Of a stretch of 64,000 nucleotides of DNA, positions 4,525-59,781 are shown piece after piece. Location of the stretch: the NCBI GenBank assembly GCA_041651115.1, contig JBAZJY010000001.1:5165-69164 (forward strand), read 5' to 3'. The position numbers were made by a program, and so were the translations under genes. Within the stretch, counting starts at the first letter, position 1. The number at the start of each line of letters is the position of its first letter. Under the pieces are notes generated by a model. It saw only the letters and a list, made by a program, of their open reading frames with translations, searched no databases and was not told the origin of the DNA. The DNA is from Candidatus Omnitrophota bacterium. GTDB taxonomy: Bacteria; Omnitrophota; Gorgyraeia; Gygaellales; Profunditerraquicolaceae.

Positions 4525-6795
4525 ATGACCGATCAAATCAGGTCAAGCAATGGTCTTTTGCGCCTCGCGTCATTTCCCGAATTAAACCCGAATCCCGTAG
4601 TTGAAATAGGCCTGGACGGTACGCTCTGCTATTCCAATCCTGCCGCACAAAAGAGGTTCCCTGATCTATGCGATTTAAAATTCAAGCATGCGTTCCTTTC
4701 CGGCATTAAACAGGAATTGCAGGCCGGCGTAAAAGACGGAAGGTTTTCTTTCAATCGCCAGGTCAATATCGGAGGCATCTGGTATGCCCAGAATATATTT
4801 TTCGTTGAGGAAACTAAAAACATCCGTATTTATGCTTATGATATAACGGTAAACAAGCAGGCGGAAGAGCGCTTAAAGGAATCTGAAGAAAAATACCGTA
4901 CCTTAATGGATGATGCCGGAGACGCAATATTGTTGGCAAATATTGAGGGGTACCTGGTAGAAGCCAATAAGAAAGCAGAGAAGCTTTTGGGTTATAAAAA
5001 AAGCGATTTATTGGGTATGCACTTTACCATGCTGCATCCCCAAGAGGAGATCAGGCGGGCTGTTCCCGCTTTTCAGAAAATCTACCGTAACGGTTCGGGA
5101 AACCTGCTTAACAGCCTGTTCAAACAAAAAGACGGAAAATTGGTCCCGGCAGATATAACCGGCAGCGTGATAAGCTACAGAGGCAAAAAAATAATGCAGG
5201 TGGTTATCCGCGATATCTCCGACCGCAAACGCGCGGAAGAGGCCAGGGAAAAGGCGCGTGAGGATTTGGAGATCCGCGTGCAAAAGCGCACTTCGGAACT
5301 GGCAAACGCGAACGTGATGCTGCAGGAGGAGGTTACCCAGCGTAAAAAAGCGGAAGAGATGCTGCGGCAGAGCGAAGAGCGCTACCACAGGATCATTTCT
5401 ACGATTACCGACTATATCTATACGGTGCGCATGGAAAAGGACGGCAGCGTAGCCACTATTCATAGTCCGTCGTGCGTGGCAGTGACCGGCTATACGGTAG
5501 AAGAATTTCAGTACGATCCGTTCTTATGGCTTAACATGGTGCATAAGGACGATAAAGAGCTGGTTTTTCAATGGTCAAAGCATATCCTTGATGGCCATGG
5601 GGTTGATCCTTTGGAACACCGCATAAAACGAAAAGACGGCCAGATCCGTTGGATCAGGAATACGGCTGTTTTTCATTTTGACGATAACGGCAAACTTGCT
5701 TCTTATGATGGGGTAGTACAGGATATTACTGACGCAAAGATCGCCGAAGATGAAAGGGCGCACGCCAATGCCTTGAAAACGATCATTGAAAATAGCCCGG
5801 ATGTGTTGCTGGTTACCGATATTTACGGCAGGATCATCCAATTCAACAAAGTACTGGTGGAAAACCTTGGATTTAATGAAGAGATCATTGGCCAGCCGCT
5901 GGCCGATCTTATTGCGGAGCCTGACCGCAAGAAGATTGCTCAAGGCATAAAAAAATGCTTAAACGAGGGCAGGGTGGGCGGCATAGAAGTAAAATGCTTG
6001 ACCGGGAATAGGGGGGAATTTTTTGCTTTAGTCAATATTTCCCTGCTTCAAGACGCGGGAGGTTTTCCCGCCGGCCTGATTGCCGTTATCACGGACATCA
6101 CCGAGCGGAAAAAAATGGAAGAAGCTAAAGACGAAAGCATTAATATAATTTCCCATGAATTGCGCAGCCCACTTGCCGCCGTAAAAGAAGGGGTTTTGAT
6201 CATCCTTGACGGTTTGGTCGGGGATGTCGGCGCCTTGCAGCAGGATGTCCTGGTTACCGTAAAAAACAATGTTGACCGGCTGGTATATTTTGTTAACAGC
6301 ATCCTTGACTATCAAAGGTTGAATTATCCGAAGATCGCGCTCGACATAACGGAAGCGGATATCAATAACGCGGCAATTGAGGCAAAAAACGGGATGAGTA
6401 TTCTGGCAAGAAGCAAAAATATTGAGTTTTTAATGGAGCTGGATAAAGGATTGCCTCCGGTAAAATTTGATTACAGCATGATCATACAGGTGCTCACAAA
6501 CCTGCTTAATAACGCGGTTAAATTTACCGATAAGGGTTGCATAAAGATCAAAACCGGCAGGCGCGGCGATACGATCGGCGTATGCGTGGAAGATACGGGC
6601 ATCGGGATCAAGCAAGAAGAGATCTCCGGCTTATTTAATATTTTCTGCCAGGCTTCTAACGGCAAAAAGGCGCGCAGCGGCAGCGGGCTGGGCCTGGCAA
6701 TATGCAAAAAAATCATTGAGCACCACGGCGGAGAGATCTGGGTGGAATCCGAATACGGTAAAGGCAGTAAATTCTATTTTACCCTGCCGGCATGA
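4525..6795 (+). CDS. Multi-PAS sensor histidine kinase (HisKA + HATPase_c), cytoplasmic.
   Basis: AAGGAG RBS. Several PAS-like blocks and coiled-coil linkers, H-box ISHELRSPLAAV, N/G boxes, and the C-terminal GSGLGLAICKKIIEHHGGEIWVESEYGKGSKFYFTLP. Confidence 0.9.
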   Translation: MTDQIRSSNGLLRLASFPELNPNPVVEIGLDGTLCYSNPAAQKRFPDLCDLKFKHAFLSGIKQELQAGVKDGRFSFNRQVNIGGIWYAQNIFFVEETKNIRIYAYDITVNKQAEERLKESEEKYRTLMDDAGDAILLANIEGYLVEANKKAEKLLGYKKSDLLGMHFTMLHPQEEIRRAVPAFQKIYRNGSGNLLNSLFKQKDGKLVPADITGSVISYRGKKIMQVVIRDISDRKRAEEAREKAREDLEIRVQKRTSELANANVMLQEEVTQRKKAEEMLRQSEERYHRIISTITDYIYTVRMEKDGSVATIHSPSCVAVTGYTVEEFQYDPFLWLNMVHKDDKELVFQWSKHILDGHGVDPLEHRIKRKDGQIRWIRNTAVFHFDDNGKLASYDGVVQDITDAKIAEDERAHANALKTIIENSPDVLLVTDIYGRIIQFNKVLVENLGFNEEIIGQPLADLIAEPDRKKIAQGIKKCLNEGRVGGIEVKCLTGNRGEFFALVNISLLQDAGGFPAGLIAVITDITERKKMEEAKDESINIISHELRSPLAAVKEGVLIILDGLVGDVGALQQDVLVTVKNNVDRLVYFVNSILDYQRLNYPKIALDITEADINNAAIEAKNGMSILARSKNIEFLMELDKGLPPVKFDYSMIIQVLTNLLNNAVKFTDKGCIKIKTGRRGDTIGVCVEDTGIGIKQEEISGLFNIFCQASNGKKARSGSGLGLAICKKIIEHHGGEIWVESEYGKGSKFYFTLPA

Positions 6796-6844: not shown

Positions 6845-8095
6845 TTGCTGATGAAAAAGAGAAGGGTTGTGATAACCGCAGTAGGCGTTGTATCTTCCAT
6901 CGGCATCGGCAAGGATGATTTCTGGAAAGCCAACCTTGCAGGCAAGTCCGGCGTAAGCGCAATCACCCATTTTGATCCTTCCCTACTTGGCTCAAAAGTC
7001 TCCGGCCAAATAAGAAATTTTAATCCTGAAGATTATATGGATCGCGACACGGCAAAAAAGGCCGATAGGTTTGTGCACTTAGGCCTTGCCGCGTCAAAGC
7101 TGGCCTTTGATGACTGGAAGGGAGATCTTGACAAAGAGGATCGCGTGAGGATCGGCGTGATCTACGGGTCAGGGCTAGGCGGCGTTTTATTCCATGAAGA
7201 GCAGATGATCAGGGCTTATGATAAAGGCAGCCATAGGCTGCATCCTTTATGCGTGCCGCGGGTCAGCCCCAATGCCGTGGCTTCGCAGATCGCGATCTAT
7301 TTTAAATTATTAGGGCCGAATATGGTAATTTCCAATGCCTGCGCCTCCGGAACAAATGGCATTGGCGAAGCATACAGAAAAATTCAGAGCGGAGACGCGG
7401 ATATGGTGGTTACCGGAGGGGCAGAGGCGCCGCTTACGGAGTTTACTTTCGGGGCGTATGACGCGATGCGCGCGCTTTCAAAGCACAACGCAGAGCCGGA
7501 AAAAGCCAGCCGGCCGTTTGATGCCCAACGCGACGGTTTTGTCCTGGGAGAAGGCGCGGCAACTCTGGTCCTGGAAGACTTGGAGCATGCGCAAAAAAGA
7601 GGCAGCCATATTTACGCCGAGATCACGGGTTATTTTTCAAATTCCGGGGCTTATCATATGGCAATCCCCGAGCCGACGGCAAGCGATATCAGCCGGGCCA
7701 TGGCCGGGGCAATAAAAGACGCGGGCCTGACAATAAAGGACATTGACTACATCAATGCCCACGGCACATCCACAACGTTAAACGATAAAGTCGAGACAAA
7801 GGGGATAAAGGATGTTTTCGGCGAAACAGCCCGGAAGATCCCGATTTCTTCCACCAAATCCATGGTCGGCCATTCCATCGGCGCTGCCGGAGCGATTGAA
7901 GCAGTAGCCTGTTGCCTGGCAATAGAGGACCAGATCGCTCCCCCGACGATCAACTATGAGAATCCCGATCCCGAATGTGATTTGGATTATGTCCCTTGCC
8001 AGCCCCGGCAGGTAAAGATCAAAAATATCCTTTCTAATTCTTTTGGCTTTGGCTCAAACAACGCCTGTTTAATATTCAGTAAGTTTAAAGATTAA
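6845..8095 (+). CDS. fabF: 3-oxoacyl-ACP synthase II (KAS II).
   Basis: Collinear with E. coli FabF. Active-site motifs NACASG (Cys), NAHGTST (His) and GHSIGAAG are present. Confidence 0.93.
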   Translation: MLMKKRRVVITAVGVVSSIGIGKDDFWKANLAGKSGVSAITHFDPSLLGSKVSGQIRNFNPEDYMDRDTAKKADRFVHLGLAASKLAFDDWKGDLDKEDRVRIGVIYGSGLGGVLFHEEQMIRAYDKGSHRLHPLCVPRVSPNAVASQIAIYFKLLGPNMVISNACASGTNGIGEAYRKIQSGDADMVVTGGAEAPLTEFTFGAYDAMRALSKHNAEPEKASRPFDAQRDGFVLGEGAATLVLEDLEHAQKRGSHIYAEITGYFSNSGAYHMAIPEPTASDISRAMAGAIKDAGLTIKDIDYINAHGTSTTLNDKVETKGIKDVFGETARKIPISSTKSMVGHSIGAAGAIEAVACCLAIEDQIAPPTINYENPDPECDLDYVPCQPRQVKIKNILSNSFGFGSNNACLIFSKFKD

Positions 8096-8138: not shown

Positions 8139-8741
8139 ATGAATAAATTTACGAAAAAAAGTTTGTTCATTGCAATGTCATTGGCAATGCTCGTTCCTGC
8201 CGCAGTTTGCCGGGCAGAGGAACCGGAGCAGAAGAAATGCTTTACTGCCGTTGAATTTTTTACCGGTTTCGGGAAGTCAAAATTACACGCGCAAGGGAAT
8301 TATTTCCTTGCGCCTTTTATTTGCGCGCTGGACTTTGACATTAAGCCGAAAATAGAAAAGCTGGGTGCGAAATTCTTCCCCGGCCTGGTCCAGTTTCAGC
8401 TTGAGCCGTTCATTTCTGCCGCTTACAGCCCGCGCGCGAATATAGAAGTCGGCAATACCTTTATGTTTAAACTGGGAATTTTGCCGGAGACGGCAAAGTT
8501 TCAGCCATATATTAAAGCGGGCATCGGGTTCCTCTATATGAGCCAGCATACCCGCGAGCAGTCCACGCAGTTCAATTTTGAAGAGCAGGGGGGGATTGGC
8601 GCGCATTATTTTATCAAGAAGAACTTCGCGATCAACGCAGATTGCCGCATCCGCCATGTTTCCAACTCCGGGATTGACCAGCCCAACCACGGCATAAATA
8701 GCATGTTCTACCTCGTAGGCGTTACCTACCGGTTCGACTAA
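8139..8741 (+). CDS. Outer-membrane beta-barrel protein, PagL-like lipid A 3-O-deacylase family.
   Basis: Signal peptide MNKFTKKSLFIAMSLAMLVPAAVCRA. C-terminal HVSNSG (a His-x-Ser-N-x-Gly motif resembling the PagL catalytic motif) and a terminal ...TYRFD beta-barrel signature. A TTGACA-16-TACAAT promoter sits at 8103-8130, which is why I prefer this start over the track's 8103. Confidence 0.55.
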   Translation: MNKFTKKSLFIAMSLAMLVPAAVCRAEEPEQKKCFTAVEFFTGFGKSKLHAQGNYFLAPFICALDFDIKPKIEKLGAKFFPGLVQFQLEPFISAAYSPRANIEVGNTFMFKLGILPETAKFQPYIKAGIGFLYMSQHTREQSTQFNFEEQGGIGAHYFIKKNFAINADCRIRHVSNSGIDQPNHGINSMFYLVGVTYRFD

Positions 8742-9422: not shown

Positions 9423-10834
9423 ACCAGAAGCAGGCAGCAGCAAAAAAGGGCGCTTCAAAATCCCGCGACGCCGAATTATTGAAGCTGGAAGCGGAATATT
9501 GTTCCTGGGGCGATACCGTGCATTACGCGGAAAAGCTCAATATCTTTGACCGCTCTGAAGGCATATATCTTTACGACCGCGAAGGCACGCAGTTCCTTGA
9601 CCTGCAGATGTGGTATTCCGCGGCAAATTTCGGCTATAAGAATGAACGGCTCGATAATGCCCTGAAGAGGCAGATTGATAAGTTACCGCAGTTGGCCTGC
9701 CAGTACCTGCATGAAGAAAAGATCATGCTGGCAACCAAGCTCTCCCAGAGGGTCGGCAGGATTTTTGAAGAAAAGGGCAGGGTGCATTTTAATGTCGGCG
9801 GTTCGGCGGCAATAGAAGACTCCTTAAAGCTTGTGCGCAGCTATTCCGGCAGGAACCTGGTATTCGCGTTCATGGGCGGCTACCACGGCAGGACATTAGG
9901 CGCTTCGGCAATTACCTCCAGTTACAGGTACAGGGAAAAATTCGGGCATTTTGCCGACCGGGCCCTGTTCATACCGTATCCTTACTGTTTCCGCTGCCCC
10001 TATGAAAAAAAACGCGATTTCTGCGACTTGTATTGCCTGCGGCAATTCGAGCGGTTGTTTGAGACTGAATATCATTCGGTGCTGAATATCAAGACCGGCA
10101 AGTGTGAATTCGGGGCATTTTACATTGAACCTGTGCAGGGCACCGGCGGTTATATCGTGCCTCCCGTGGAATATTTTACCGGCCTGAAAGAGATCCTTGA
10201 GCGGTATAATATATTGCTTGTCGATGATGAAGTCCAGATGGGATTCTTTAGGACAGGGAAATTCTGGGCGATTGAACACTTTAACGTTGTCCCCGATGTC
10301 GTAGTTTTTGGTAAGGCGCTGACAAACGGCCTTAATCCGCTTTCCGGGATCTGGGCTAAAGAAAAATTGATCTCGCCGCAGGCATTTCCGCCCGGCTCAA
10401 CCCATTCAACCTTTTCTTCAAATACGCTGGGCACAGCGGTAGGCCTGGAAACGGTAAAATTGATCGAAGAGTCTAATTTCAGCGTTGATGTACCTAAAAA
10501 AGGCGAATATTTCATATCCCGGATGCGCAAGCTTACTAAAAAATATCCCCAGGTCGGCCATGTCGGCGGATTAGGCCTGGCAATACGCGTTGAAATTTGC
10601 CAGAAAGACGGCTTTACCCCGAACAAAGAATTGACTGACGCGATAACCAATATCGGCCTTTCCGGAAATTTAGACGTCGGAGATAAGAAGATGGGGCTTA
10701 TATTGGATGTCGGCGGCTATTATAAGAACGTCTTTACAATAGCTCCGTCGTTGTATATTACGGAAGAAGAAATTGACCTTGCGGTAGACCTTTTTGAGGA
10801 AGCGCTAAAAAAAGGCATTGCCAAGGTTTCTTAA
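9419..10834 (+). CDS. Class-III PLP-dependent aminotransferase; substrate unknown.
   Basis: ATGA start/stop overlap with the upstream gene. Class-III pattern YLYDREGTQFLDLQ...AANFGY, GGSAAIEDSLK, FYIEPVQGTGG, LLVDDEVQMGFFRTGKFWA, and FGKAL carrying the PLP Lys. Confidence 0.8.
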   Translation: MNQKQAAAKKGASKSRDAELLKLEAEYCSWGDTVHYAEKLNIFDRSEGIYLYDREGTQFLDLQMWYSAANFGYKNERLDNALKRQIDKLPQLACQYLHEEKIMLATKLSQRVGRIFEEKGRVHFNVGGSAAIEDSLKLVRSYSGRNLVFAFMGGYHGRTLGASAITSSYRYREKFGHFADRALFIPYPYCFRCPYEKKRDFCDLYCLRQFERLFETEYHSVLNIKTGKCEFGAFYIEPVQGTGGYIVPPVEYFTGLKEILERYNILLVDDEVQMGFFRTGKFWAIEHFNVVPDVVVFGKALTNGLNPLSGIWAKEKLISPQAFPPGSTHSTFSSNTLGTAVGLETVKLIEESNFSVDVPKKGEYFISRMRKLTKKYPQVGHVGGLGLAIRVEICQKDGFTPNKELTDAITNIGLSGNLDVGDKKMGLILDVGGYYKNVFTIAPSLYITEEEIDLAVDLFEEALKKGIAKVS

Positions 10835-14284: not shown

Positions 14285-14724
14285 GAACCTGCCGGCTCTT
14301 TTCGCGTCGTGTGCCGTTTCCTTACCGTAGGCGGAGGACGCCAAAGGTCTTTCGTGAGCTCGGCGGCTGCGGAACTCGCCCGTCGGCGCTTACGCGCCAG
14401 GACGGGCTCAAACATCCTCGCCGTCCGAACCTTTTCACGTTCGGATTCCCTCGCTCCCGAAAGCTGCTTTGGCTAAACGGCACAAACTCCGCTTAAAGAG
14501 CGTCAGGTTCATTTACGAGCGGAACGCTATGCTTATGCGAAGGGCTTTGTGAGCGCGCATTGCAAACTTTTGCCAATTTCACTTTTAGAGATAGGCCGGC
14601 AAGGGCTTACGGCGAGCGGAAGCCCTAATGTTACGAAAGTATGCTTGAGAGCGAGCCGTAAACCGTAGCCGACGGCAAGATGTTTGCAGCGCGCGAGCAA
14701 AGCCCTGAAGCATAAAGCATAGCG
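14285..14724. repeat. GC-rich structured intergenic repeat: module A (14285-14520) plus a long imperfect hairpin (14525-14724).
   Basis: 14285-14520 is about 75% identical to 59342-59590 (gaacctg..ttcttttcgc..gtgtgccgttt, tctttcg..cggcgg..gaactcgc, cggattccc..gctttggctaaacggc.caaac..cgct.aaaga..c..cag.ttcattta). 14525-14558 pairs with 14689-14724. Local GC exceeds 55%. Confidence 0.7.
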
Positions 14725-39305: not shown

Positions 39306-40691
39306 GTGCCTATATATATACAAAATTCCCTTACCCGCAAAAAAGAAGAATTTTCTCCTCTAAAGCCTCCGGCAGTAAATATGTACACCTGCGGAGTAAC
39401 TGTTTACGACGACTGCCATATTGGCCACGCCCGCAGCCTCTACATTTTTGACGTGATCCGTAAATATCTTAAATACCGTGGGTACAACGTTAAATTCGTC
39501 CGCAACATTACCGATATTGACGACAAGATCATTAACCGCGCCAATGAGCTCAAAGAAAATTGGCAGGAATTGGTAAAAAAATACATCAGCCGTTATTATG
39601 AGGACTTGGCCAGCCTGGGAGTGGAAAAGGCGGATTTTGAGCCGCGCGCCACGGAAAACATCAAGGCAATGATCAATCATATCACCGGCCTGATCGAGCT
39701 GGGGTTTGCATATGAAGCAGGCGGTGACGTATATTTTAGCGTGCGTAAATTTTCCGAATACGGCAAGCTATCCGGCCAGAGCATTGATCAGATGGAATCC
39801 GGAACGCGGATTGATCCTTCAGATTTTAAAAAGGACCCGCTTGATTTTGCGCTTTGGAAAAAATCAAAGCCGGGAGAGCCGTTTTGGCCAAGCCCATGGG
39901 GCGAAGGCAGGCCGGGCTGGCATATTGAATGTTCGGTAATGAGCGTAAAATATTTACAGGTGGATACTTTGGATATCCATGCCGGCGGCAGGGACCTGAT
40001 CTTCCCACACCACGAAAATGAAATTGCCCAGGCAGAGGCGCTTTCCAACAAGCCGTTTGCCAAATACTGGATCCATCATGGCCTCTTAACGATCAACGGA
40101 CAAAAGATGTCCAAGTCTTTGGGTAATTTTGTAACGATCAAAGACTTTATGGATAAATATAAGAATGCCGATCTTCTAAAATTATTTTTCTTGACCGCGC
40201 ACTATTCTCATCCGATTGATTATACGCAAGAGAAAATAGAAGAAGCAAGAAAGGCGTTGGAGCGGATCGTTATATTGATGAATAAGATCGCAGACAGCAA
40301 ATTACAATCCAAAAGTAAAAAATTTGAAGAGATAGATAAGATCAAGGCAAGGTTTATTGAGGCAATGGATGATGATTTTAATACGCCGCAAGGCTTGGCA
40401 GCGATATTTGACTTAGTAAACCTGACGAATAAGCAAATCAATAATGCGGATTTTGTCATTGTGGCAAAAGATACGCTTAATGAGTTATTGGGTATTCTTG
40501 GGATTTCGCTTTTTGCCGCGCCTGCATCCGGGCTGGATGACAAAAACATAGAAGCAAAGATCGCTGAACGTAACCGGCTCAAGAATGAAAAAAAGTATAG
40601 CGAGGCAGATGGCATCAGAAAAGAGCTTGAAGCACAGGGCATCATTTTAGAAGACACAAAATCCGGCACTGCCTGGAGAAGGAAATTATAG
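39306..40691 (+). CDS. cysS: Cysteinyl-tRNA synthetase.
   Basis: CGVTVYDDCHIGHARS (HIGH) and KMSKSLGN motifs; zinc-binding Cys. Confidence 0.95.
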   Translation: MPIYIQNSLTRKKEEFSPLKPPAVNMYTCGVTVYDDCHIGHARSLYIFDVIRKYLKYRGYNVKFVRNITDIDDKIINRANELKENWQELVKKYISRYYEDLASLGVEKADFEPRATENIKAMINHITGLIELGFAYEAGGDVYFSVRKFSEYGKLSGQSIDQMESGTRIDPSDFKKDPLDFALWKKSKPGEPFWPSPWGEGRPGWHIECSVMSVKYLQVDTLDIHAGGRDLIFPHHENEIAQAEALSNKPFAKYWIHHGLLTINGQKMSKSLGNFVTIKDFMDKYKNADLLKLFFLTAHYSHPIDYTQEKIEEARKALERIVILMNKIADSKLQSKSKKFEEIDKIKARFIEAMDDDFNTPQGLAAIFDLVNLTNKQINNADFVIVAKDTLNELLGILGISLFAAPASGLDDKNIEAKIAERNRLKNEKKYSEADGIRKELEAQGIILEDTKSGTAWRRKL

Positions 40692-40734
40692 GTAATAGTA
40701 GGAACCGTCCCTAACGTTTTGAAAGGAGCATGCT

Positions 40735-41361
40735 ATGGGAGCTTTAATACCGTTAATATTCTTACTCATTATCGCCGGTTTCTATTCTTTCATTGCTTTG
40801 ATCTGGTGGAAGATCTTTAAGAAAACCGGGTTCCATCCGGCGCTGGGAATTTTAATGCTCGTTCCTTTCCTTAATCTTGTTATGCTGGCATTCCTGGCAT
40901 TCAGGGAATGGCCGGTGCGCGAAAAATTATCGCATTACAGCGCTAGCGGAGTTATCCCTCAAAAGTCGCTGGCTATGCCGCTGATTGTGGCGATCGTTTT
41001 TGCTGCGGTTATACCGGTAACGCTCTTATTTATTGCGATCGCGGTGCCGAATTTTATGCGCGCCAAGTTAATCGCGAATGAAGCTATGGCGCAGGCCGTG
41101 GTAAAAAACGTATCTCAGGCAGTAGAAGATTATGCTTCCGCAAATAACGGTGTTTATCCGACGAATGAAGTTACCTTGAAATATCCGGTTGGGTCTGAAG
41201 TGTCGTATGACGATAAGACGATTGAAGGGTACAGCTATTCGGTGAATTTGCGCCAGGATGGTTATGAAGTGGCGGCAAGCCCTGAAAAATGCGGGGTTAC
41301 CGGTTTTAACGTGTTTTTGGCGGAAACAGGCGGCAAGTTAGCAGCCAAAGACTGCCGGTAG
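40735..41361 (+). CDS. Membrane protein with a C-terminal type IV pilin-like domain fused to an N-terminal 2-TM domain; no prepilin cleavage motif.
   Basis: Two N-terminal TM helices; an internal hydrophobic helix AIAVPNFMRAKLIANEAMAQ... resembling the pilin N-terminal helix; a C-terminal Cys pair (EKCG...KDC). Flanked by direct repeats tagg.a.cGTCCCTAACGTT at 40698-40717 and 41370-41389. Homology is untested. Confidence 0.6.
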   Translation: MGALIPLIFLLIIAGFYSFIALIWWKIFKKTGFHPALGILMLVPFLNLVMLAFLAFREWPVREKLSHYSASGVIPQKSLAMPLIVAIVFAAVIPVTLLFIAIAVPNFMRAKLIANEAMAQAVVKNVSQAVEDYASANNGVYPTNEVTLKYPVGSEVSYDDKTIEGYSYSVNLRQDGYEVAASPEKCGVTGFNVFLAETGGKLAAKDCR

Positions 41362-41400
41362 GGCTTTGTAGGGACTGTCCCTAACGTTCTTTCATAATTT

Positions 41401-41545
41401 TGCGTCTGTCTTGTGTGGTTTCTCGCGGGGACGCTCGCTCCGCCCCTGCGAGGCGGAGCATCGCTCGTGAGTCGGCTTTCGCTCTGCCCTAACGTAAGTG
41501 AGGGCATCCTTGCCCGCTCAAGCCTCCTACGCCCCGCTCAAAACC
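41401..41545 (-). repeat. GC-rich structured intergenic repeat, module B (inverted copy of 59628-59766).
   Basis: The reverse complement aligns at about 85% with 59628-59766. It includes a GCTCCGCC-n7-GGCGGAGC hairpin that in the other copy reads GTCCCGCC-n7-GGCGGGAC (compensatory changes). Confidence 0.75.
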
Positions 41546-41650
41546 ACCACAAGCCTACCGCAAAATTGATAAACGTGCGCTTCGAACAAAAACCGTAAAT
41601 TTTAAATAATATGCGCTTCCGAAATTATTCGTAAACTTGTAGTTGAAATT

Positions 41651-42205
41651 ATGAAAAATCCAGATTTTAATGTAGAAAACGATAAGATATTCAAATATTT
41701 TGTAGAGCAAATGGGCCCAGCTAATTATGAAATATTTAATTCTGAAGAACCAATGCCATTTGTAGTGGCACAGCCTCCTTATAGAGGATTCTATACTTGT
41801 ATTTCGACTAGTGCGACTATTGACATTAAAACAGTTTCCTATCGGAATCTCGAACTTGCCCCTGATGCTCCCGTAGTTGTAATGCGCAATATGAGATATT
41901 GCGATCACAACGACAAGCCACATCTTAATTCAGATGATACCGTATTTTTTGCGCATAAAAGTGGTCGAATCGGAAGAGTGGTAAGAAAAGACGCAGAAGA
42001 TCACTATAAAGAAATTGCTAAAATTGGGGGGCTAGAACATATTGCAGAGGCGTTTCATTTACCTAAAGAAACGAGTGGGCCAATAAGCCAATATGTTGAA
42101 AATGGAGCCTCAGTTCCTATCAGAATTGATTGTCCACCTAAAGATAAAATTGCTTTTATAGTAGATTTAACAAAGAAAAGTTTTAAGGTGGTGCGAAAAG
42201 AGTAG
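41651..42205 (+). CDS. Hypothetical protein in an AT-rich, compositionally foreign islet.
   Basis: 184-aa ORF with GC near 36% against about 50% for the surrounding genes, and A/T-ending codon usage. No domain I recognise. Confidence 0.6.
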   Translation: MKNPDFNVENDKIFKYFVEQMGPANYEIFNSEEPMPFVVAQPPYRGFYTCISTSATIDIKTVSYRNLELAPDAPVVVMRNMRYCDHNDKPHLNSDDTVFFAHKSGRIGRVVRKDAEDHYKEIAKIGGLEHIAEAFHLPKETSGPISQYVENGASVPIRIDCPPKDKIAFIVDLTKKSFKVVRKE

Positions 42206-42307
42206 CTTTTTTTGGAATTTCGGGGACGTAATACTTAATTATCGTTTAAGCGGATGGGTTGGGTTGGTTTTTTGAGCAACACAAGCCAGCCGCTTTAGGG
42301 GAAAAAT

Positions 42308-42856
42308 ATGAAAAAGATTGCAGCGTTTTTATGCGTAGTTTTATTAGCAGGGACTGCGTTTGCGGCAGATTTTGTGCTGAAGAGTCCGCAGCTTCAGGAA
42401 GGCGGCCAGCTTGGCATGGAACAGGTATTTGCCGGTTATGGCTGCACCGGTGAGAATATCTCTCCCGCTTTATCGTGGGAAGGCGCGCCTGGCGAAACAA
42501 AAAGTTTTGCCGTTACAGTCTATGACCCGGATGCCCGCAAAGGAAACGGATGGTGGCATTGGGTGATCTTTAATATCCCGGCGGATGTTAACAGTCTCTT
42601 GCAGAATGCCGGTGATCTTGCTTCCGCTTTGGCGCCTAAAGGAAGCGCGCAGGTTAAAAGCGATTCCGGCAAGCCCGGCTATAGCGGAGCATGCCCGCCG
42701 GCAGGGGATAAGCCGCACCGTTATATATTTACCGTCTATGCTTTAGATGTTGAAAAAATGCCTATGGATGAAAATACTTCAGGAGCCGAAGCAGGCCCCA
42801 ATTTAGATCAGCACGCGATCGCAAGGGCAGCGATAACCGTAACTTATTCCAGATGA
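42308..42856 (+). CDS. YbhB/YbcL-family (PEBP/RKIP-like) periplasmic protein.
   Basis: Signal peptide; conserved YDPDAR...WHW...CPP...HRY motifs of the bacterial PEBP family. Confidence 0.8.
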   Translation: MKKIAAFLCVVLLAGTAFAADFVLKSPQLQEGGQLGMEQVFAGYGCTGENISPALSWEGAPGETKSFAVTVYDPDARKGNGWWHWVIFNIPADVNSLLQNAGDLASALAPKGSAQVKSDSGKPGYSGACPPAGDKPHRYIFTVYALDVEKMPMDENTSGAEAGPNLDQHAIARAAITVTYSR

Positions 42857-42888
42857 GAGTAAAATATATCGCGATAGCATTATTGGAC

Positions 42889-42999
42889 GGAATTGGGGAC
42901 GTCCCAAAAGCGGAATTGGGGACGTCCCAAAAGGGGACACCCTAGTTATATTTTAATAGGGTGGTACCTTAAAGGACGTCCCCAGTGACGTCCCCAGTG
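42889..42999. promoter_or_regulatory. Array of palindromic GGGGACGTCCCC motifs with a central CACCCT/AGGGTG inverted repeat.
   Basis: ggaattggggacgtcccaaaag appears twice in tandem (42889-42933). caccct-n14(AT-rich)-agggtg follows, then gacgtccccagt twice (42976-42999), immediately before the ATG at 43001. A half-site cggggacgt is also present at 42224-42233. Confidence 0.55.
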
Positions 43000-43000
43000 A

Positions 43001-43579
43001 ATGAAGCTTATGAAAAGATTAAGGTCGGTTTTATTTATCGCGGTGTTCGGGATTATCGGATTGTGGGCGCAGACTGCTTACGCAAGGGTCTCTTACATGC
43101 CCAGAATATCCAAAGCCGCCGCAGCGTATCCTAATGACAAGTTTGCCGTAGTCGGAAGCCGGATAATGTTTTATGGCGGTATTAGCATACTAGTTCTACT
43201 GTGCATAGGCTTGGCCGTGTTTGCCTATAAACTAATACCCAAAACAGAAAAAATCAGGACCTGTCCGGTAGAAGAATTTGTTCACGCCAGGCAGATAGCT
43301 ATTTATTTGCCGCGCAGCAATGATATTATCCTGAAACCGGGCTCTAAGTATTTTACTGAACTGATCAATAATTTTACCGGCGATAAAAAGGCAGCTTCCG
43401 ACGATGACAGGTACAGCGATAAGCTTTTTCTAAAAATAAAAAACAGGCGTTACGCAATTGAGGCATCTCTGGACGGCTGGAATTTTGAAGGAGAACTGCG
43501 GAATTCCCGCGTCTTAAGCAACCCTTTAGAGGTAAGAAAAATCATTGATTCCCTCAAAGAAGAGTATTTAAAGAAATAG
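43001..43579 (+). CDS. Hypothetical membrane-anchored protein.
   Basis: ORF with an N-terminal signal/anchor and a second TM helix; no recognisable domain. The ATG at 43010 is an alternative start. Confidence 0.6.
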   Translation: MKLMKRLRSVLFIAVFGIIGLWAQTAYARVSYMPRISKAAAAYPNDKFAVVGSRIMFYGGISILVLLCIGLAVFAYKLIPKTEKIRTCPVEEFVHARQIAIYLPRSNDIILKPGSKYFTELINNFTGDKKAASDDDRYSDKLFLKIKNRRYAIEASLDGWNFEGELRNSRVLSNPLEVRKIIDSLKEEYLKK

Positions 43580-43599
43580 GAAGATCGTTAGAATAAAAA

Positions 43600-44115
43600 A
43601 TGAAAGCGAAGTATTTAGGAATAACGTTATTAATAAGCGTAATGCTTTTACCGGCTGCTGCCTTGGCGATTGATACGGCTGACTGGCAAATATATAAGAA
43701 TGAAGTTTACGGATACGAGATCAAGTATCCGCTTATTCACGCTTACCTGCCGCTGGAACTTCGCCCGGTTGGCGGTGAAAAAGACGGCCGGGAAATCAAG
43801 GTATGCTTTGCAGAAACCTCTGTTCACCACGGCATAGTTGTTAAGGTGTATCCCGGCAAAAAAATAAGCAAGATCGCTTCAATAGAAGGGATCAAGGCGC
43901 CTTCTTTTAGGGATATAAAAGACGGCCTTCCAATAGCGCATAACTGGAGCATCACGAAAGTTAACTCACGGGATGCCATAAAGCATCGAGGAGATGTTGT
44001 TATTACCATTATTACCAACGGCGCCGTATTTTATATCTATCCGTGGTATAATTTCAGCGAGTTCTTTGCCGAGGACGTAATTTCTACGTTTAAATTCAAT
44101 GATTTATATGCGTAA
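43600..44115 (+). CDS. Hypothetical secreted protein; paralog of the next gene.
   Basis: Signal peptide. Shares ...YKNEVYGYEIKYP... and the C-terminal FSEFFAEDVISTFKFN with 44099-44665. Confidence 0.65.
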   Translation: MKAKYLGITLLISVMLLPAAALAIDTADWQIYKNEVYGYEIKYPLIHAYLPLELRPVGGEKDGREIKVCFAETSVHHGIVVKVYPGKKISKIASIEGIKAPSFRDIKDGLPIAHNWSITKVNSRDAIKHRGDVVITIITNGAVFYIYPWYNFSEFFAEDVISTFKFNDLYA

Positions 44116-44665
44116 AAAGTATATTACGATAACCTTATTGATCTGCGCGATAGCTTTACCGGCTGCTGCTTTTGCGCAGATCAGCGATGATGTTTCAACC
44201 TGGATAACGTATACGAATGAAGCCTATGGGTATGAGATTAAATATCCCCCTGAAATGGAGCTTATACTTGGCGGCACAGAGTTGGAAATAAACGACCGGG
44301 AATTTGTCATCCGCGTCAAGGAAAGCGATGATGACAGCGGCATATCCGCGCAGCTTTATCCGGGAAAAGATTTAAGCGCGATTGACCCCGGCGGCTTAAC
44401 TCTGCCGTCTTTGATAGATTTAAGAGTAGGTGCGGTGGAATACAAGAAAAAAATAGATAAAGTCGGGGTCTATGCCTATAAATGGAACCTGGTAATGATC
44501 AATGGCCAGGAAGCCATAAAAGGAGAAGTATATTTTGAATCTACGGCTGAAAGAATGGGTATGTTTTTTATAATTGATGAGGCATTCTTCAGCATTGAGC
44601 CGTGGACTGACTTCAGCGAAACACTCGCAGAAGAAATAATCTCAACTTTTAGGTTTAATAGATGA
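44099..44665 (+). CDS. Hypothetical secreted protein; paralog of the previous gene.
   Basis: Signal peptide. ...YTNEAYGYEIKYPPEMEL... and FSETLAEEIISTFRFN. Overlaps its neighbours by 17 nt and 4 nt. Confidence 0.65.
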   Translation: MIYMRKKYITITLLICAIALPAAAFAQISDDVSTWITYTNEAYGYEIKYPPEMELILGGTELEINDREFVIRVKESDDDSGISAQLYPGKDLSAIDPGGLTLPSLIDLRVGAVEYKKKIDKVGVYAYKWNLVMINGQEAIKGEVYFESTAERMGMFFIIDEAFFSIEPWTDFSETLAEEIISTFRFNR

Positions 44666-59341: not shown

Positions 59342-59766
59342 ATGAACCTGTCAGTTCTTTTCGCTCAGTGTGCCGTTTGCCCTAAGATAAATAATGGGCC
59401 GCCAATGATCTTTCGCATTTCGGCGGCGGTGAACTCGCGCCTTTTGCTCTAGCAAAAGTCGCTCGGACATACACCGCCGTCCCGATATTGCCGCCTATTC
59501 AGGCGGCATCGGGATTCCCGAAAGTGCTCAAGCTCCATTGGCTAAACGGCCCAAACTTCGCTCAAAGAATCGACAGATTCATTTATAAGTTAATCGTTAT
59601 GATTTTGCGGCTAACTTGGCTTGCTTTGAGCGGCACGTAGGAGGCTTGAGCGGGCATGGTTGCCCTTACTTACGTTAGGGCAGAGCGAAAGCTGACTTCC
59701 GAGCGAAGTCCCGCCTCGCATGGGCGGGACGAGCGTTGCTGCGAGAAGCAAGGCAAGGCAGACGCA
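59342..59766 (+). repeat. Composite GC-rich structured repeat: module A (59342-59590, similar to 14285-14520) plus module B (59628-59766, similar to the reverse complement of 41401-41545).
   Basis: Direct alignments as described for the other copies. The ORF track reads through it (59656 start), but stop-free translation of a GC-rich repeat is not evidence of coding. Confidence 0.75.
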
Positions 59767-59781
59767 AAATCTCTACTAATA

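Follow-up and report, generated by a model that had tools for sequence, protein, structure and literature searches.

Morons are self-contained extra genes of prophages and integrated elements. They are inserted between conserved genes, often have a deviant composition, and frequently encode exclusion or defence functions. A second point of comparison is ImmA, the anti-repressor protease of the immR-immA-int operons of ICEBs1 and phi105-type elements. A third is provided by the recombination directionality factors (RDFs) of large serine integrases, whose sequences and predicted structures vary widely and which have the integrase as their only binding partner (10.1101/2025.01.03.631226).

The gene described here lies in a 64-kb stretch of a Candidatus Omnitrophota MAG, the whole of which was analysed and is called the window below. 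It is a 184-aa ORF at 41651..42205 on the + strand, with a product that starts MKNPDFNVENDKIFKYFVEQMGPANYEIF / MKNPDFNVENDK and is annotated in the source genome as hypothetical protein WC532_00225. It resembles a moron in being a single ORF of unlike composition with precise insertion borders, and the members of its family resemble morons in lying at the edges of elements, by att sites or integrases, in being dispensable in relatives, and in being kept by selection. It differs from morons in that the window copy stands alone in the chromosome and not within a recognisable prophage, that no promoter or terminator of its own was detected in a consensus scan, and that the family is present in no deposited phage or IMG/VR contig. 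Accessory genes of foreign composition in variable slots are familiar; the protein family to which this one belongs is undescribed.

A foreign single-gene cassette in a variable slot

The sequence-only reading described an AT-rich islet with a switch to A/T-ending codons, located between a structured repeat (module B) and a YbhB gene, and this description holds. The GC content is 35.4% at 41586-42240 and 36.8% in the 184-aa ORF, against 48.0% for the window overall. Among the 52 long ORFs of the window, which have a mean GC of 47.7% and a mean GC3 of 55.5% (sd 6.8), this ORF is the lowest in both (z = -3.6 for GC; 25.5% and z = -4.4 for GC3). Its codon usage also fits the window worst (log-likelihood z = -4.1, rank 1/52 in deviance), and in a 4-mer comparison the 641-nt segment that carries it tops all sliding windows in deviance (z = +5.3). 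By every measure it is the most extreme in the window, and both k-mer and codon-usage profiling place it far beyond the gene-to-gene variance found there.

An ordinary native gene might have a low GC content because of its amino-acid content or expression level, with no horizontal transfer. The arrangement is stable, as would be expected of such a gene: it is found, 100% identical, in two more assemblies from other samples (L027, L028), making three assemblies of the same strain in total, and ruling out an assembly artefact. Against this, GC1 (0.505) and GC2 (0.342) of the ORF are ordinary and GC3 is 0.255, so that the shift in base composition is synonymous. In addition, the syntenic site in relatives is without the gene, its homologues are found in unrelated contexts, and relatives occur in only 2 of 185,579 species-representative genomes, both Omnitrophota. 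The native-gene explanation is effectively refuted.

The borders can be described in order from the left. Module B (41397..41566, unstranded) is a GC-rich, hairpin-forming repeat that is the left neighbour of the slot and lies outside the foreign DNA. It has an inverted copy 18 kb away, at 59602-59770 (82-85% identity over 146-170 nt), and the DNA fold of 41390-41605 has an energy of -44.8 kcal/mol (z = -4.85). The left landmark GAACAAAAACCGTAAATTT (41584..41602, +) forms the end of a palindromic repeat element. It occurs nowhere else in the window and is conserved in a relative without the gene (L029), where its counterpart GAACAAAAGCCGTAAATTT at 866-884 is the right arm of a 171-nt hairpin element (z = -7.57). 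There follows an AT-rich leader (41603..41650, +), with 23-28% GC in a fine GC profile and neither a Shine-Dalgarno sequence nor a sigma-70-like promoter on the + strand, and then the gene itself, which is supported by the ORF, the family profile search, conservation, dN/dS and an AlphaFold2 (AF2) model. The 3' flank of the cassette (42206..42243, +) contains GGAATTTCGGGGACGT at 42214-42229. Homology to other loci stops at 42205-42213, and the true right border of the foreign DNA is somewhere within this flank. The right landmark GTTTAAGCGGATGGGTTGGGTTG (42244..42266, +) is host sequence, unique in the window and with 0 matches in 100 shuffles. The scan for sigma-70-like promoters on the + strand and for a terminator after the ORF used consensus sequences that leave out Omnitrophota promoter types, and found neither for the window copy. 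An Rfam search of 40600-43100 gave a single chance miRNA match.

The downstream neighbour of the gene is of the PEBP/YbhB type (PF01161, E = 1.6e-41). The motif GGAATT(N0-2)GGGGACGT occurs only three times in the 64 kb, at 42214-42229, 42889-42904 and 42912-42927, which is once upstream and twice downstream of this PEBP gene, with ACGTCCCC half-sites afterwards at 42976 and 42988. It may be an operator or a repeat that frames the PEBP gene.

The comparison with relatives shows what the slot can hold. In L029/L030, a relative whose pilin-like gene is 69% identical to the pilin-like gene upstream in the window, both landmarks are kept (the right one 96% identical, at 1054-1079), and between them there are 169 nt of unrelated AT-rich filler, where the window has 641 nt with 35.7% GC (41603-42243). 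The idea that this filler is a deletion remnant of the cassette was rejected (local alignment z ~0). Beyond the filler, L029 has a RelB/ParE toxin-antitoxin pair and then a homologue of the 188-aa gene of the window; the syntenic site of L029/L030 has no family gene, no PEBP gene and no 192-aa gene. A more distant relative (L031) has the order cysS, pilin-like gene, an unrelated 179-aa gene, tmk, holB, again with no family gene. In the window the housekeeping order is cysS, pilin-like gene, slot, tmk, holB, with the slot (40735-44665) occupied by the family gene, the PEBP gene, the 192-aa gene and tandem 171/188-aa paralogues. These differing contents mark the region from the pilin-like gene to tmk as a hypervariable accessory slot, of which the 184-aa gene is one occupant, in agreement with the earlier suggestion of an accessory neighbourhood. 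None of the homologues shares the synteny of the window. The observations show that 41603-42243 is a horizontally acquired single-gene cassette, placed between genes at a variable site, in a stretch that otherwise holds housekeeping genes.

Two other descriptions of the cassette were tried and rejected. A TTTAA target duplication at its ends, seen by eye only, is a 5-mer that is common in AT-rich DNA and is missing from the left junction of L029. An integron gene cassette is not indicated either: the window has no tyrosine recombinase, the hairpin repeat that flanks the ORF is on its upstream side, and the termini of that repeat, read by eye, are GTT...AAC and not the RYYYAAC...GTTRRRY of attC.

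It is worth adding that the window has a secondary 4-mer outlier, an intergenic region with repeats at 14342-14424 and 14599-14704 that are also found in other Omnitrophota loci. They match L005 at 6220-6308 (80%) and the palindromic element of L029 at 728-832 (78.5%), and on sequence they look like a dispersed MITE-like family.

A previously undescribed protein family

The protein had been taken for an orphan, and this is only partly right. A word-indexed search found four relatives with 67-83% identity, giving four to five close homologues, and with an exhaustive profile search the family extends to 56 cluster representatives at E <= 1e-3, 35 of them at E <= 1e-10. Nearly all are 160-185 aa long. 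The named members are mostly from Omnitrophota, with one from a MAG labelled Deltaproteobacteria, and the clusters hold only one or two sequences each. The part of the claim that stands is the lack of annotation. The window protein has no match in Pfam or PADLOC (both at E <= 1), NCBIfam, PHROGs or the PDB sequences. For 43 family members, PADLOC-DB 2.0 defence HMMs give 0/43 at E <= 0.01, PHROGs give nothing, and Pfam gives nothing meaningful (one member has a single marginal match, E = 0.0094). The family profile also has no match among PDB sequences. Deposited phages and plasmids (tblastn) and IMG/VR contigs (scan) gave no match to the family and so give no sign of a link to phage biology.

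The close copies all have a GC content of 37-38%, whatever their flanks. Four full-length close copies have dN/dS of 0.12-0.21 with dS of 0.65-1.1, which indicates a functional gene under purifying selection, in copies that diverged long ago. The closest sampled copy is 83% identical in DNA, with dS ~0.8. This has a consequence for the sequence-only reading, which spoke of a recent horizontal acquisition: the gene is foreign, as judged by its composition and by its syntenic absence in two relatives, while the word recent cannot be given a date when the nearest copy is this far away.

Alignment of 43 sequences places the conserved core at residues 75-160 (mean column identity 32%). The conserved positions are R79, R82, H86, H91, N93, D95, D96, G105, D114, D117, H118, Y119, L137, P138, G143, Y148 and G152. 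H118, P138 and G143 are invariant, followed by H91 (98%), N93 (95%), R82 and D117 (91%), D95/D96 (84-86%) and R79 (84%). The window copy retains all of the conserved residues. Its pI is 6.6, close to the family median of 6.4, and inspection of the 184-aa protein by eye reveals neither a signal peptide nor a membrane segment. One family member, P0041 (221 aa), departs from this pattern: by eye, the N-terminal half gives way to what looks like a lipoprotein-type signal peptide and a coiled coil, to which the conserved core is fused. Either this is a genuine extracytoplasmic variant, or the assembly has produced a chimera.

AF2 run with only four close sequences gave a pLDDT of 33.6, and the alignment of 43 sequences was used instead, giving a usable model (pLDDT 78.6, pTM 0.73). 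In the model an N-terminal helix precedes a sheet that is mainly antiparallel, and the conserved H-x-N-x-D-D lies at a long hairpin. A Foldseek search of this model against PDB and BFVD returned noise only (CapZ, FabA and ketosteroid-isomerase-like alpha+beta sheets, TM <= 0.30). HEXXH is not conserved in the family alignment, and Peptidase_M78 (PF06114) matches neither the window protein nor any of the 43 members. No HNH-type model match or beta-beta-alpha-Me fold was found for the family. By the tests run, the family lies outside the PADLOC families, Peptidase_M78/ImmA, HNH and the integron cassettes. Taken together, the results show a rare and previously undescribed family of ~20-kDa cytoplasmic alpha/beta proteins that carry no annotation.

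Contexts at island edges and beside integrases

The survey of genomic contexts covers 16 independent loci, the window included, and 11 of these have a mobile or defence context. Five contexts (L001, L002, L015, L018, L019) have recognised defence genes nearby, a fraction whose denominator is unreliable because many of the contigs are 1-3 kb long. In another five (L005-10, L014/L021, L017, L020, L022) the family gene is translationally coupled upstream of a large serine recombinase. One (L011-13) has the order tRNA-Ser, family gene, three small genes, tyrosine integrase. The remaining contexts, which are unknown or other, are those of the window, L003, L004, L016 and L025/L026.

The defence contexts put the family gene beside restriction-modification or GmrSD genes. 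L018 has an Eco57I-type methylase, a PstI-type endonuclease, an HNH gene, two unknowns, a GmrSD_N protein, and then, after 51 nt, the family gene. L002 has a GmrSD_C protein followed by the family gene, L015 a methylase followed by the family gene, and L019 the order family gene, N4/N6 methylase, 380-aa gene, TdeIII. PADLOC was run on ten unannotated neighbour genes and gave one marginal LmuB match only. The family gene is always the outermost gene in its AT-rich DNA. In L001-L003 the GC content climbs to 48-50% directly after it, and it comes first after a boundary landmark in L019 and after the tRNA gene in L011. Three different restriction/defence islands have in common a landmark of ~80 nt at the left edge, opposite the family gene (L019 ~516-635, L018 ~480-558, L001 1-61). 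It is 82-92% identical, has a sigma-70-like promoter and an intrinsic terminator, and may be a small RNA; considered as a tRNA or known RNA (60-80 nt), it is neither, with no Rfam match. A non-coding remnant in L001 (9419-9641) corresponds to a 181-aa gene found ahead of the family gene in L003 (615-870), and implies that this pairing predates the island arrangement of L001.

This repeated juxtaposition with restriction genes, which includes two unrelated GmrSD-family genes, is what would be expected of an anti-defence protein, for example an anti-restriction protein, that helps mobile elements to enter new hosts and is left behind in the chromosome. The family is also small and fast-evolving, with its low mean column identity and clusters of one or two members, and it is always on mobile or foreign DNA, adjoining integrases. 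We nevertheless consider this explanation improbable. The protein is not acidic or DNA-mimic-like, given the pI values above, and it lies on the same strand as the restriction gene arrays, at their ends, and not in leading regions of transfer. The deposited phages and plasmids contain no copy, and the gene is kept alone in the chromosome under purifying selection, where such a protein would have no obvious benefit.

The borders of homology between loci coincide with those of the ORF. L018 and L002 are 92.7% identical starting 2 nt ahead of the start codon, while their upstream GmrSD-family genes have no detectable similarity, and homology between the window and other loci is limited to the ORF +/- ~8 nt. 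No conserved target sequence was found at the junctions. These comparisons show a family gene that travels as a unit with ORF-precise borders. Purifying selection maintains it even where it stands alone. A selfish homing-type nuclease gene that copies itself between genes would explain such borders, where homology begins 2-8 nt from the start codon, stops at the stop codon and has unrelated flanks. It would also suit a gene that is AT-rich relative to its hosts and has a conserved His/Asn/Asp/His set. A further point in its favour comes from L014, where a recombinase 5' end has left a 68-nt remnant immediately upstream of the gene, and this remnant duplicates the downstream sequence. We give the homing explanation only a small chance. 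Models for HNH, GIY-YIG, LAGLIDADG and other nucleases give no match, the fold search hit no beta-beta-alpha-Me fold, and no conserved target sequence was found at the junctions. In the recombinase-linked clade the gene has kept a stable position through deep divergence, consistent with vertical descent inside the element.

In one locus, L004 (180-820), the family gene breaks off at about codon 127 and runs into the final 51 codons of an S26 signal peptidase gene, with a PyrR-like gene next. Either a deletion created this junction or the contig is chimeric.

The recombinase-linked clade has family proteins that are 35-45% identical to the window protein. A MerR/excisionase-like HTH gene of 60-74 aa comes first in these loci, followed by the family gene and then the recombinase (Resolvase + Recombinase + Zn_ribbon_recom), and the loci are integrative elements. 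The stop codon of the family gene overlaps the start of the recombinase by 1-4 nt in five independent loci, and in three of the five the AGGAG ribosome-binding site of the recombinase falls within the last codons of the family gene. The coupling holds even where the recombinases are only 42-43% identical. Identities of the two genes are incongruent: for L014-L020 they are 67% (family gene) and 43% (recombinase), and for L005-L014 they are 60% and 67%.

On the basis of this clade, the main rival to a defence function is that the family gene encodes an accessory factor of the integrase module, either an RDF-like recombinase partner or a regulator positioned like ImmA, with the window copy being a remnant of a decayed integrative element. 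The overlapping stop and start, the AGGAG inside the gene and the small HTH gene ahead of the pair all favour this, as does the survival of the linkage through recombinase divergence. The comparison with RDFs such as phiC31 gp3 and Bxb1 gp47 is apt in so far as the family gene of this distant clade shares an element with a large serine recombinase, and the sequence and predicted fold of the family are unlike those of known families, with no DNA-binding domain detected in the protein; the high variability of RDFs (10.1101/2025.01.03.631226) is consistent with this. The comparison fails in other respects. A tblastn search found no recombinase in the 64-kb window, neither serine nor tyrosine, so that only the distant clade has a cognate integrase in the same element. 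No recombinase adjoins the gene in the window clade or in L019, yet there the gene is intact and under purifying selection. The incongruent identities, with no co-divergence of gene and recombinase, argue against cognate co-evolution. Unlike an RDF, the family protein is translationally coupled and so made whenever the integrase is, and an RDF obligatorily co-translated with its integrase would block integration. Finally, a strongly conserved His/Asn/Asp cluster is unexpected in a pure binding factor.

The resemblance to ImmA operons is one of arrangement: an HTH protein, a protein of ~170 aa and an integrase, in this order, in one operon at the end of the element. The HTH protein is of the 60-74-aa MerR/excisionase type and not an Xre-type repressor, the integrase is a serine and not a tyrosine recombinase, and unlike ImmA the family has neither HEXXH nor a Peptidase_M78 match. 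Overall, an integrase accessory factor appears unlikely.

Several features of the integrative elements were noted in passing. L020 carries a DnaG-type primase, and the elements of L005, L014 and L020 all adjoin miaB. Specifically, L005 973-4490, L014 8501-11274 and L020 8486-11223 are serine-recombinase elements (recombinases 42-67% identical) lying directly upstream of miaB, with the 3' end of the recombinase overlapping the annotated miaB start. The presence of three divergent elements at this gene suggests a conserved attachment site at the 5' end of miaB. In L014 a perfect 177-nt inverted repeat (5432-5608 / 9966-10142) surrounds a 4.4-kb module that consists of the HTH gene, a 609-aa gene, the family gene and the large serine recombinase. 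The same module (100% identical proteins) is found in L021 (231-6885), flipped relative to the flanking 282- and 286-aa genes, and the C-terminus of the recombinase differs between the two orientations (549 vs 566 aa). From its sequence the module looks like an invertible segment. Module B of the window was compared with these inverted repeats and is unrelated to them. The recombinase remnant upstream of the L014 family gene is one copy of a 68-nt direct repeat (7863-7930 vs 8514-8581, 72% identity), and in L022 (1-243) a minus-strand fragment of a serine-recombinase 5' end adjoins the family gene. These remnants hint at nested or tandem insertions of related elements.

The contexts show that the family travels with mobile DNA, either at the edges of islands beside restriction-modification or type IV restriction cargo, or directly upstream of the integrase of small elements.

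Possible function and significance

The explanation that we favour, tentatively, is that the 184-aa gene is a moron-like accessory gene of mobile and defence islands, encoding a His/Asn/Asp enzyme with a stand-alone role in defence or exclusion. As a moron-like gene, it would be a self-contained addition to mobile elements. The conserved H91-x-N93-x-D95-D96 and D117-H118 are predicted to form an active or metal-binding site, and the enzyme may act on incoming nucleic acid or on a nucleotide-type substrate. It would be expressed in the integrated state, to the benefit of whichever island or chromosome carries it. Such a role would explain why the gene is retained when solitary, why it has repeatedly and independently come to lie next to restriction genes, why it is co-expressed with integrases in the integrated state, and why its distribution is patchy and fast-diverging.

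The sequence-only reading had offered an immunity, defence or anti-defence gene. No family member matches a known defence or anti-defence family. Since no member has a library match and the model has no fold match, it is the neighbourhood that speaks for defence. Unlike single-gene candidates put forward by guilt by association, the family has no PADLOC hit in any of its 43 members, and recognised defence genes are found in only five of the 16 contexts, many of them on short contigs. In one clade the tightest link, and the most conserved partner, is the serine integrase and not a defence gene. The conserved His/Asp residues could also be structural.

Omnitrophota are documented to exchange restriction-modification and toxin-antitoxin cargo heavily (10.64898/2026.05.20.726742). 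A more specific version of the favoured explanation would make the protein an enzyme of new fold and its gene a stand-alone defence (or exclusion) gene against phages or plasmids in the mobile islands of Omnitrophota, placed at the edges of islands as a cassette with ORF-precise borders and expressed together with serine integrases. In this detailed form we regard it as rather doubtful.

The family has a clear catalytic-looking signature and is found consistently where restriction islands and integrative elements have their borders; it carries no annotation, and neither PDB nor BFVD holds a detectable relative of its fold. Should it turn out to act in defence or as a co-factor of integrases, one of those toolkits would gain a new protein family, and accessory factors of large serine integrases have practical interest for genome engineering as well. 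The hypervariable slot, set in a housekeeping region, can serve strain typing and the study of how slots of this kind fill up. To our knowledge, the mobile elements and immune systems of the Omnitrophota, which are uncultured, are almost unexplored. If the specific version above is true, the gene would be a previously unrecognised single-gene immune module from an uncultured phylum of ultra-small cells.
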